A stretch of DNA of 41,362 bases, from IMG/VR virus record IMGVR_UViG_3300045988_035261, positions 1 to 41,362 of that record. One strand, written 5' to 3'. The notes under the pieces are model-generated. The model was not told the DNA's origin. It saw only the letters and a list, made by a program, of their open reading frames with translations, and ran no database searches. Positions 11,401 to 14,400 of the stretch are shown here, one piece after another (position 1 is the first letter of the stretch; every line of letters begins with the position of its first letter). Origin of the DNA: a virus. Both the position numbers and the translations under genes were made by a program.

Positions 11401-14400
11401 GCTTTTGTCAATTCTTTTTCAATTGGTTTCAATTCTTCATCAAGATTTTCACTGTTAGGGTCTAGCTTTTGTAATTTGCTTAGTAGTTCCCAGTTCCTAG
11501 CAAGGTCTTTATTGGTATGTGCCTTAATCAAGCGTGCTTCCTCTTGAGTAAGTTCCATTTGTCCTTGATTGGATAGTAGCATTTCTTCGGCTATTTCTTG
11601 GTTGGATTTGCCTGCGTTCGGATCATTAATAAACGCATCTTTCGCACGTTCCATTTCCTGTGCTACTGCTTCATCGTAAGTACTGCCAGCTTCCTCTTGT
11701 TCCGCCTTTTCTAACCCCTCAATAGTTCGATATTGAGTATTTTCTAATGCACCATCACCCAACGCCATGTATCGTTGATGTTCTTTATAGATAGGATATT
11801 CTTCGACTAAACGCTTTTCGATTTCAGCTTGTACATCGTATTTTACATCTTCCCATTCTTTAATAGGTCGATTGTCTAATTCTTTCATGTACTTACGCAT
11901 TACACGTTCTTTTGCTTTTTCTTTAATATCAGCAATGTATCCTTGCACTCGTGCCTGTTCAGTTTCGCTCAATTGTTGATATAGCTTTGTATTTTCAAAT
12001 TGCTCTAATGCTTGCTCGTGTGCGTAGTTTTCAATGTCATCTTGCGTAGCTATCATGCGTGCCATTATATCCTTAATGTCAGATGGTACTTCACCGCCTA
12101 ATCGTTGTACACTACGATAAATACGAGTTAACCATTTAGAGAATTGACGGAATACACGTTGTAGTCCTTTTGTTGGTGCTTCACCACTTCGCAAGTAGCT
12201 TTCCCAACCTCGTGCGAATTTCTCGTGTGCTTTGGTATTGTCTACGTTTTCGCCATCAACCCAACCGCTCCACTCTTTGAGTGTGTTCCAATCATCAAGT
12301 AATTGTTTAGGTGTATTGTCTATAGATGCTAGTTTTTGAATATCATCAAAGAACACATGCCCCATTTCGTGTAAGAATGTACTTCTATCAGCTGTTTTGA
12401 AAATGCTGATGATGCGTTCGCCATCTTTCATGATTTCGGTCATACCATTAACGGATTGGTTGTACTTTTCGATAATATTAATAGCTTTATCATCGAACAC
12501 TACAAAATTATGACTAAGACCATGTTTGTATTTAATCCCTTTTATACCTAACTCGTTTAATTTAAGAGATGCGTTTTTGTCGCCACCTAAACGTTCTGAC
12601 AAATCATTATAAAATTCCTTACCAGTTTTATTAATGTCAGTCGGATCTAATTGTTTTATTTTGTTTAAAACGTATTCCGACTGTTCGTTAATTGGTTTTG
12701 AGTAATCTAACATTGTATCTGTATCAGGAATTTCAACATTATATAGTGTTGGTTTGTAAACAGAAGTTACTTCAAAATTATTAATGTTATCAATTAGATA
12801 TGAATTTTTTAAAACGATATCATTATAAAAAATATAATGTTTATGGTATCTTTTCTGCAACTCTTCAATAACATCAAATAGGTATTCTTTATTCACTCGT
12901 TTGTTATCAGATTTAGCTTTGGTTTTAGCATCGTTTAATATAACAGTTGCCATTCGTTCAAACTTATTATCAACAAGTGTTGGTAGTTTATTAATGGCAA
13001 ATTTACTATTTTGTGTTATAAAATCTAAAACACCATCTAATTCATTCAGATTTTTAGTAACTAAATCTAAATTACTTTGCTCAGCATCTCTATTAAGAAC
13101 TAACCGATTTAATAGGCTTTCTTTATTATTCTCTACATTAATGCCACCAAATATTTGCTCTATAACAGGAGCATACTCAATTGGTATATCATTACCATTT
13201 AAAGTAAATTTATTTTTAGATTTACGCTCTACTTTATATTTTTCAGCTACATTTTTGTTTTCAGTAAAATATAACCCCCAACCAAATGCTTGCGTTCCTA
13301 AACCACCACCGATACTACCCAAATCAAATTCATCAAAGTCATACGGCGAACCATGCCATGCGGATTGGTAGTACTGATAATTATGTTTCTTTCTTAGCTT
13401 GTCTAAATCTTTTTCATTTGGTATACTATTGTTAAATATAAACTGTTTAGTACCTAGTTGGGCGATTTGTTGCCTGTTGCTGGTTACTAAGCGGTTTATT
13501 TTTTTTGTATTCCAATAAACCAAATTGCCATTGTTCAACTGATTTATGTACCAATTAGCATTGCGTCTCGGAGTTATTGTTTTAATTTTATTAGCTTGCC
13601 ATGTTTTTTTACGTCCATTAAATACTGTTGTATTTTTAATTACAACTTGAATATTCTCGCCACTAGCATTAACTCCCTGTTTATTATTAGCGTATGCATC
13701 CAATACCACAACGTATTCATTAGGAATGACTTGTTTAGTTACTGGATCATAATTCTTAAAAATAGCAATAGGATTAGCGATTTTTTTGGGTAACTGCTTT
13801 AATACTTCAGCATCCATTTGCCCTACATGTTTCCCATTTAATGCTTTTTTTATTACGCTTGGATTAATATCGATTTCACCAACAGCGTTTATAAATTGTA
13901 ATACCATAGGGCTATCCATGAGTTTTACACTCCCAGTAATTGGTTGTCCGTTTAAATGATTATCAATTACGTTACTCCACGCTTGTATGTCATTATTCAT
14001 TATTTGTTGCATTATTACAGATTGTGCATAGCCATCTTCACCATTAAAGATAGCATCCATGTTGATACGCACGCTATCACGGAAATAATCCATAGCAGTA
14101 TAACCGCCTTTGCCCTTTTGTCGCATATATTGTGCCATTACATCAGCATGTTGTGCCATTAACAACGCATTAGCTTTTGCCGTTTCACGTTGTTTTCTAT
14201 CGGTACTTTCACCGATAGCTTTAACTACTTTGTTATACACTTCATAGCCACTCTTAGATAATTGCATCCGTAACGCTATATCGTTATCTGCTAATGTGAA
14301 TATCTTATCATGCAATCTCTCAAGGCTTTCAATTTGTTGTAGCGCATGTTCCATATCAGCATGATGGATATTGCTTTGGTTAAGTGCTTCCGTATTATCC

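Follow-up and report, generated by a model that had tools for sequence, protein, structure and literature searches.

A probable long-form ART-PolyVal domain in the giant internal virion protein of a likely Veillonella podophage

Does the giant virion protein encoded in the virus record IMGVR_UViG_3300045988_035261 carry an ADP-ribosyltransferase (ART), and could such a domain act on the host? The window, by which we mean the whole 41,362-nucleotide stretch of this record, contains a giant open reading frame (ORF) in which an initial annotation had noticed an H-G-S triad followed by a G-x-G-[IL]-Y-F motif. It had read these as the nicotinamide adenine dinucleotide (NAD+)-binding elements of an ART of the H-Y-E clade, split by one long insert. 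We find that amino acids (aa) 1089-1392 of this protein very probably form a single ART-fold domain, with a six-stranded core and two helical inserts, that belongs to a long form of the ART-PolyVal family. ART-PolyVal is the "ADP-ribosyltransferase of polyvalent proteins", the N4-ART family of the Tox-ART-HYD2 clade, and ARTs are the commonest protein-modifying domains of virion-delivered polyvalent proteins (Iyer et al. 2017, PMC5512222). The domain is a new member of this described kind.

Translation of the giant ORF places the motifs inside the protein where they had first been located (Table 1). The 41-residue string originally quoted for the N-terminal motifs ends at aa 1132, not 1123, and the C-terminal block spans 12489-12560, a tighter interval than the approximate one first given. 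The assignment of H-G-S and G-x-G-L-Y-F to the strand-1 His and strand-2 Tyr of ARTs is borne out by the Pfam ART-PolyVal profile, by hhalign, and by an alignment with tankyrase-2. In whole-protein searches, ART-PolyVal (PF18760) matches aa 1092-1136 with 21.9 bits and DUF3990 (PF13151) matches the same residues below its threshold, both covering only the first 40 to 50 model positions. When aa 1070-1400 are excised, the ART-PolyVal match rises to 27.6 bits (E = 5.4e-6, model positions 10-50), and when the inserts are cut out in silico, the resulting 144-aa core matches positions 10-129 of 140 with 31.0 bits, where the gathering threshold is 31.2. Relatives behave in the same way: those tested uncut all score just below the Pfam cut-off and match the N-terminal part of the model only, while insert-free versions match ART-PolyVal in all 32 cases, DUF3990 in 26, PARP in nine, and RES in four.

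The kinship with PARP, DUF3990, and ART-PolyVal that had been suggested therefore needs ranking: ART-PolyVal is the closest, the others are weaker matches within the same superfamily, and the formal Pfam thresholds are missed throughout. DUF3990 shares the N-terminal H...Y region (E = 3.7e-4 to 1.8e-4), over profile positions 4-60 of 152 with the core only and nominally to 101 in the best stretch of the uncut region, but its 17.3 to 21.7 bits stay below its cut-off of 32.2 and are always weaker than those of ART-PolyVal. The PARP profile (PF00644) matches the excised core at positions 77-190 of 199 (E = 0.022) and the uncut region with E = 1.2.

The family to which the domain belongs is very large. 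Its profile recovers 1244 proteins in an indexed library, and an exhaustive library yields 19,294 representative clusters at E <= 1e-3, with 11,970 at E <= 1e-30. Many members are giant proteins, of up to 7242 aa and with up to eight copies of the domain. Homologues show three conserved blocks separated by variable stretches, and 27 columns conserved in at least 90% of sequences are distributed across all three core segments. The domain is complete, at 228 to 483 aa, in 120 of 123 fetched relatives; the inserts are therefore a family-wide property and not a peculiarity of the window protein.

Direct comparison with canonical, short copies ties the two forms together. Tunturiibacter phage Tunturi_5 gp273 (L004:89-4558, 1489 aa), a polyvalent protein encoded beside a minor head protein, contains both a canonical short ART-PolyVal copy (aa 425-567; Pfam 145 bits, positions 1-140 of 140) and a long-form copy (aa 809-1050). 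A jackhmmer search seeded with the short copy converges end to end on the long form, including the window copy (model positions about 4-137). We used the same seed to collect 85 short copies from giant polyvalent proteins. Against these, hhalign matches the N-terminal 45 columns of the long form with 99.2% probability (E = 1.4e-19), the C half alone with the C half of the short copies at 96.1% (E = 3.5e-9), and the last 45 residues alone at 96.6%, the C-half tests spanning E = 5e-10 to 3.5e-9. The block LNELGIKGIKY...NFVVFDD is thus the C-terminal strand region of the same domain, as originally proposed (C-half hhalign, 96%).

A Foldseek search of the database of predicted viral structures (BFVD) gives 26 matches at E < 1e-3, many of them named ART-PolyVal-like. 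One, a 191-aa "PolyVal ADP-ribosyltransferase", is bridged across the inserts (E = 1.8e-8, TM-score 0.62 normalised to the target). The setting is also of the polyvalent type, a 2727-aa protein in a structural module with a MuF_C domain directly upstream of the ART region; in a Turicibacter prophage, a solo family member directly follows the terminase and portal genes. As a separate observation, gp273 has a NUDIX domain and a GNAT acetyltransferase together with three copies of ART-PolyVal type; one short copy has Asn before strand 5, the canonical short copy has Glu, and the long-form copy has Asn.

We modelled aa 1085-1396 with AlphaFold2 (AF2; mean predicted local distance difference test score, pLDDT, 76). 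Core-strand blocks mostly score 84-98, the blocks that hold the N-core strands and the following helix 84-92, and the block of the GGGLG loop 67. The N-terminal core is predicted to comprise a strand at aa 1089-1095, a short helix at 1111-1115, a strand at 1120-1123, a helix at 1126-1135, and a strand at 1141-1144; H1093 and Y1121 lie within the first two strands. Three strands follow in a middle core (aa 1286-1289, 1295-1301, and 1307-1309, all with pLDDT above 94) and three in the C-terminal core (aa 1365-1370, 1373-1378, and 1385-1391). This predicted strand order fits an ART core.

The middle core is the reason why we describe two inserts where the initial annotation had one: a conserved strand element, aa 1284-1318, divides the intervening region. 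In this element Y1297, L1308, and Q1317 are near-invariant in the family, and hhalign aligns it to the VVPVYV strand of the canonical ART-PolyVal copy. Insert 1 is predicted to form helices over aa 1151-1281, and its length and sequence vary across the family. Its site is probably that of the zinc-binding loop of tankyrase-2, between Y1071 and the LLFCRVTLG strand. Insert 2, also variable in length in the family alignment, has predicted helices at aa 1319-1328, 1337-1348, and 1351-1360. The Asn/Lys/Ile enrichment noted at the outset is real but modest (insert versus rest of protein: N, 12.6 versus 6.5%; I, 9.6 versus 6.7%; K, 9.6 versus 7.8%; L, 11.9 versus 7.1%).

Set beside canonical ART-PolyVal, the window domain has the same strand-1 His and strand-2 Tyr, the same strand order once the inserts are removed, and the same embedding in a large virion-delivered multidomain protein beside a MuF-type domain. 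It differs by its two helical inserts (about 135 and 42 aa), by an Asn in place of the strand-5 acid (the D of H-Y-D), and by an additional loop motif, GTGEGAQ, that is typical of the long form and has Leu for Glu in the window copy. With tankyrase-2, a PARP, it shares HGSP...G-x-G-[IL]-Y-F-[AT]-E-N...Y and an identical Y-X10-Y spacing. The core profile aligns to tankyrase-2 over 45 columns (hhalign, E = 7.8e-5, probability 61%; sequence checked against PDB 7POX), with H1031, Y1060, and Y1071 opposite H1093, Y1121, and Y1132. Unlike PARPs, the window domain lacks the catalytic Glu and the regulatory or helical PARP subdomain.

What remains of the expected catalytic apparatus? The published triad of this ART family is H-Y-D, with His in strand 1, Tyr in strand 2, and Asp in strand 5 (PMC5512222). 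The H-Y-E reading first given to the window domain does not hold: the domain has neither the strand-5 Asp by which Iyer et al. 2017 define the family nor the Glu at the start of strand 5 of H-Y-E ARTs. The position is occupied by N1375, which aligns with the Glu of QEVIAF, the acid that precedes strand 5 in the canonical short copy, and stands in register with E1138 of tankyrase-2 in an alignment that is non-significant alone and agrees with the canonical mapping. In the short copies, an acid occurs in the N1375 column or one residue earlier in about half of those sampled. Residue counts for the long form were made in a strict set of 347 copies. Among these, position 1375 is Asn in 302, Ala in 35, Cys in nine, and Gly in one, and never Asp or Glu. 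Judged from its sequences, the long form is an H-Y-N variant of the published H-Y-D family.

The other pocket positions are strongly kept. His is found at 1093 in 346 of the 347 copies and Tyr at 1121 and 1132 in every one, while 1297 (Y, 334), 1317 (Q, 334), and 1368 (Y, 327) are nearly as constant; the window copy has the family residue at all six. H1093-G-S is intact, and Y1121 and Y1132 lie 11 residues apart, the Y-X10-Y spacing. Furthermore, D1380, at the end of its strand, is 73% conserved (D in 254, N in 58). Two positions depart from the family in the window copy. The loop GTGEGAQA has Glu at position 1111 in 324 copies (93%), where the window loop GGGLGTQA has Leu; the tankyrase-2 alignment puts this loop in the D-loop region. 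Position 1311 is Asp in 293 copies and Ser in the window. The two losses tend to go together: Asp1311 is also lost in eight of the 23 copies without the loop Glu versus 46 of the 324 with it. As the sequences are related, this gives no more than a hint that Glu and Asp work together. That the loop Glu is universally required, a possibility we considered, is weakened by about 20 otherwise intact copies in other phages that also lack it. The papers that we read seem not to state that an acid is never present at the catalytic position of the long form, that a loop Glu is near-invariant there instead, or that the structure of A4 gp27 may contain a relative. The missing acid, the loop Glu, and the possible kinship with cyanophage A4 gp27 described below are family-level points, none of them unique to the window.

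The domain is maintained by selection. We compared it with the orthologue in a Veillonella metagenome-assembled genome (MAG): the ratio of nonsynonymous to synonymous substitution rates (dN/dS) is 0.19 for the domain, 0.33 for insert 1, and 0 to 0.07 for the cores (N core, dN = 0 at dS = 0.26; C part, dN/dS 0.07). The window copy deviates at one of 18 columns conserved at 88% or more. This dN/dS, with the single deviating column, rules out a decaying pseudo-domain. On sequence, selection for catalysis, for binding, or for structure would look alike. L1111 is common to both close relatives, the Veillonella orthologue and L001, a relative from a metagenome.

We favor, with moderate confidence, the following account as a whole: the long-form ART-PolyVal domain is ejected into the host, binds NAD+, and likely transfers ADP-ribose to a host target. 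By synteny, the giant protein would be packed in the capsid as an internal core protein and, on infection, ejected through the tail with the other core proteins, which would carry the MuF_C-ART cassette into its host, most likely the diderm Firmicute Veillonella. There, by homology, the domain would bind host NAD+ in a pocket of the PARP/diphtheria-toxin type, in which H1093 and the G1094 backbone would hold NAD+ and Y1121 and Y1132 would stack on the nicotinamide. By analogy with T4 Alt, and in line with what has been proposed for polyvalent proteins, a single ADP-ribose would most likely be moved to a host macromolecule early in infection. The window domain shares with T4 Alt this proposed logic, a capsid-packed ART delivered at infection to modify host targets, but Alt, a member of the unrelated R-S-E clade, is a protein in its own right rather than a domain of an ejectosome protein; a sequence relation between the two went undetected. 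Whether this particular copy turns over NAD+ at all is close to a coin toss, because both candidate acids are absent, and ADP-ribosyl transfer by it stands slightly below an even chance. Turnover may be weak, substrate-assisted, or absent, given the clade-wide Asn1375 and the Leu in place of the loop Glu.

Several points weigh against this account. The canonical catalytic acid is absent (N1375), the loop Glu is absent (L1111), and the near-invariant D1311 is Ser; the apparent placement of residues 1111 and 1375 relative to the NAD+ pocket comes from alignment. Packaging and ejection rest on synteny. Every ART, DUF3990, and PARP Pfam score for the domain lies below the gathering threshold, by 0.2 to 9 bits for ART-PolyVal, for which long-form relatives score 26 to 31 bits. 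Our literature search found no biochemically characterised ART-PolyVal member, short or long. PDB searches by sequence, with the region, the family profile, and the core-only profile, returned only noise, including a sub-threshold cholix-toxin alignment (E = 1.1) that showed the expected Y-X10-Y register.

In a Foldseek search of the PDB, the list for the window model is dominated by ARTs at E = 0.1 to 3, namely MbcT, 6KYF (an anti-CRISPR protein that we take to be the ART AcrIF11), cholix toxin, tankyrase (30-32% identity over about 53 columns, root-mean-square deviation 2.4-3.0 Å), diphtheria toxin, exotoxin A, and PARP15. None is significant: no ART matches at E < 0.1 and nothing at E <= 1e-3. 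A short relative, P0007, gave a better model (pLDDT 85, predicted TM-score 0.80), and no ART was among the 50 matches listed for it. We therefore claim no fold support from the PDB, and membership of the ART superfamily rests on sequence profiles and on the literature placement of ART-PolyVal, with no significant match to a solved ART.

A non-catalytic role of the repurposed fold has a minor though appreciable probability; the domain would retain the NAD+/ADP-ribose pocket, or the fold alone, and act as a sensor or decoy that binds a ligand or as a building block of the pre-ejectosome, with no transfer. It would account for the Asn in place of the catalytic acid, for the Leu at the loop position here and in both close relatives, and for the additional loss of D1311, given that Glu and Asp losses tend to co-occur; purifying selection is equally consistent with a binding or structural role. 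The best match to a solved structure points the same way. Cyanophage A4 gp27 (PDB 9K3A chain B, 1717 aa), the protein that makes up the outer pre-ejectosome layer (PMC12002296), is the top PDB fold match of both models (window model, E = 9.8e-3, probability 0.95; P0007, E = 1.9e-3, probability 1.00, 270 columns).

Like the window protein, gp27 is the largest ejection protein of a podophage and is encoded at the same place in the gene order (A4/A-4L gene, L009:20116-25269, minus strand; candidate region, aa about 1420-1605). Its sequence contains LYHGT...GVGEWGSGTYFS at aa 1424-1450 and, some 130 residues further on, VGVDALTDGDTTLVINPD, and the short-form profile matches it weakly, with 52% probability over 22 columns. 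It differs in that the second Tyr is missing. The LYHGT motif is ART-like, and gp27 has a TTLVINPD strand. The A4 paper does not mention ADP-ribosylation (PMC12002296). As a lead, these likenesses suggest that a diverged relative of the window domain has already been seen inside a capsid, as A4 gp27.

Against a purely structural role stands the strict retention of the His, both Tyr residues, and the G-rich NAD loop, for which such a role has no need. The loop Glu is perhaps non-essential in any case, in view of the otherwise intact copies that lack it, and human PARPs that lack the Glu (H-Y-I/L) retain mono-ART activity.

A more specific evolutionary version of events has a low probability. 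The long form would have shifted its acid from strand 5 to the Glu of the GTGEGAQ loop, at the site of the PARP D-loop over the donor site, and the window lineage would have lost that Glu too, along with Asp1311, while the H-Y-Y pocket stayed under strong purifying selection, leaving a catalytically silent but selected NAD+/ADP-ribose-binding module. Such a module might serve as a sensor or sink for NAD+-derived defence signals, or as a pre-ejectosome block like A4 gp27.

It is improbable, though conceivable, that the domain is instead a NAD+ glycohydrolase or a nucleic-acid-modifying ART, which would use up the NAD+ of the host or mark DNA or RNA as the genome enters. An amide at the position of the catalytic Glu has precedent in some ART-fold NADase toxins, for example the glutamine in TNT. 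Four of the 32 family members show weak RES matches, the characterised RES member MbcT degrades NAD+, and MbcT is among the non-significant fold matches of the window model. A hint of nucleic acid comes from the fusion to MuF_C, which Iyer et al. 2017 (PMC5512222) group with the RNase-like PBECR domains, and from a PBECR3 nuclease in the family member P0076. The RES and MbcT similarities are, however, marginal, and the sequence offers nothing to tell targets apart. NAD+ depletion would also mimic the abortive-infection defences of the host, with no obvious benefit to the phage. Finally, a chance resemblance in a low-complexity, AT-rich stretch (GC 29%, an N/K/I/L-rich insert, sub-threshold Pfam scores, and empty PDB sequence searches) is refuted by the 19,294 clusters, the 27 conserved columns, the independent N- and C-half hhalign matches, the core matches in 32 of 32 relatives, and the dN/dS of 0.19, and its probability is negligible.

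MuF_C and the ART domain together form a low-GC cassette (positions 12456-13823, aa 937-1392) with a GC content of 29-31% and third-position GC (GC3) of 0.19-0.25, between flanks with a GC content of 38-40% and GC3 of about 0.30. By part, GC is 31% in MuF_C, 29% in the ART region, and 26% in insert 1. Against the Veillonella MAG orthologue, identity is only 31-41% in MuF_C but 85-98% in the neighbouring ART domain, and most of the remainder of the giant protein past the N-terminal 200 residues reaches 62-100% (100-residue windows). MuF_C thus looks like a hypervariable or swapped module.

In L001 (L001:6993-15240), the ART region is 96% identical to the window copy. The L001 giant protein is spread over three reading frames (called ORFs of 1008, 449, and 1308 aa), whose parts are 73%, 89%, and 62% identical to the window protein. 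The frame changes flank the MuF_C-ART region (aa about 1015-1401), the second directly after the ART domain, and homology in the third frame begins upstream of the called start codon; the breaks may be either real frameshifts, in which case the 449-aa ORF would be an ART protein expressed separately, or assembly errors. The GC island, the divergence of MuF_C, and the part-wise identities and frame borders of L001 indicate horizontal exchange of the MuF_C-ART module. The cassette was presumably inserted between the N-terminal region and the Bbp10-like C-terminal half of the giant protein.

The genomic setting is that of a T7-like structural module. PHROG scans of the neighbouring genes, all read on the minus strand, give the order listed in Table 1, and the giant protein itself matches PHROG 9880 over aa 29-2626 (E = 1.6e-133). 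Orthologues of the small internal virion proteins in L001 show faint Pfam marks of T7 Gp13 and gp14. With the transglycosylase core protein on one side and the tail spike on the other, the giant ORF occupies the place of T7 gp16, and by position it is the counterpart of this largest ejection (internal core) protein. Resemblance to proteins of cultured phages is limited to the C-terminal half (aa about 1400-2650), which is 22-25% identical to Bbp10 of Bordetella phage BPP-1 and to podophage proteins of Cobetia, Pseudomonas, Vibrio, and Caulobacter (tblastn, E down to 3e-68).

A search of a phage collection for near-identical DNA gave no match, and tRNA genes, sought as a mark of an attachment site, were not found in the window. 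In a scan of one genome per species, a Veillonella sp. MAG obtained from a Hadza gut sample proved to encode an intact 2745-aa orthologue that is 81% identical (L006:2262-10499, contig NZ_CAKQFJ010000029.1). From this near-orthologous locus and the integrase gene, the phage is most likely a temperate T7/BPP-1-like podophage of Veillonella. Veillonella is a Firmicute with an outer membrane and an anaerobe of the human gut.

Two further regions of the giant protein deserve mention. A zincin-like HExxH motif, HEMGH (aa 1421-1425, positions 12357-12371), opens the Bbp10-like half, and a Glu-containing motif, HEKFARGWESYL, follows about 50 aa later; the HEMGH region is conserved in the homologue P0008. 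No Pfam, NCBIfam, or PDB match was found for this region (aa 1396-1640), which could be a processing peptidase, comparable to the metallopeptidases of polyvalent proteins. Nearer the N terminus lies a Gly-rich hydrophobic stretch, GGRGAIVGAVIGGAIGGLATDGVGIGAGAATGAKWGGG (aa about 255-297, window positions 15740-15870), similar to Gly-rich regions at the N termini of solo long-form ART proteins, P0010 among them. The stretch may serve in membrane insertion or in packaging.

Table 1. Features of the giant protein and of the window, with residue numbers of the giant protein and nucleotide positions of the window
Feature	Residues	Position	Strand	Basis
Giant ORF, 2727 aa, virion (ejection/internal core) protein carrying the ART domain		8448-16631	minus	ORF list, translation
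MuF_C domain	937-1046	13494-13823	minus	Pfam PF18819, E = 1.2e-11, 45.1 bits (cut-off 27.6)
ART N-terminal core	1089-1148	13188-13367	minus	Pfam, hhalign, AF2
WHGSPYDF	1092-1099	13335-13358	minus	
H1093, strand 1	1093	13353-13355	minus	
L1111, loop GGGLGTQA (family residue Glu)	1111	13299-13301	minus	
GWGLYF	1117-1122	13266-13283	minus	
Y1121, strand 2	1121	13269-13271	minus	
Y1132, helix after strand 2	1132	13236-13238	minus	
Insert 1, predicted helical, N/L/I/K-rich	1149-1283	12783-13187	minus	AF2 (pLDDT 41-77)
ART middle core (TLYNVEIPDTDTMLDYSKPINEQ), strands EVTS, TLYNVEI, MLD and PINEQ motif	1284-1318	12678-12782	minus	
Insert 2, three predicted helices	1319-1360	12552-12677	minus	AF2 (high pLDDT)
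LNELGIKGIKYK	1358-1369	12525-12560	minus	
ART C-terminal core, strands GIKYKH, SHNFVV, NIIEKYN	1361-1392	12456-12551	minus	
N1375, canonical catalytic-acid position	1375	12507-12509	minus	Alignment
FVVFDD	1376-1381	12489-12506	minus	
Bbp10-like C-terminal half	about 1400-2650	8682-12434	minus	tblastn
Structural module, first part: small and large terminase subunits, portal, scaffold or protease, major head protein			minus	PHROG
Structural module, second part: tubular tail proteins A and B, two small internal virion proteins			minus	PHROG
Structural module, last part: 736-aa protein with transglycosylase-like region, giant ORF, tail spike			minus	PHROG
Integrase gene		1931-2986	plus	
DNA methyltransferase gene, first of two adjacent, early or replication region		32992-33765	minus	PHROG 67
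DNA methyltransferase gene, second of two adjacent, early or replication region		33770-34528	minus	PHROG 2882

For genome annotation, the finding is an ordinary one: an internal virion protein has an ART-PolyVal-like domain. Among the host-modifying enzymes that phages inject, the ARTs of polyvalent virion proteins are predicted to be the commonest, and the long form accounts for over 19,000 sequence clusters in our survey, with no experimentally characterised member in our literature search. The window provides a compact, intact example in what is most likely a temperate podophage of a human-gut anaerobe, together with a map of the domain: three core segments, two inserts, an intact H-Y-Y pocket, an Asn where the catalytic acid would be expected, and a loop that lacks its Glu. 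Relatives that keep the loop Glu are natural comparison partners, and with this map they make it testable whether the family transfers ADP-ribose and via which residue. If confirmed, the link to gp27 would provide the first experimental structure for the family and a view of how such domains are stowed in the capsid.

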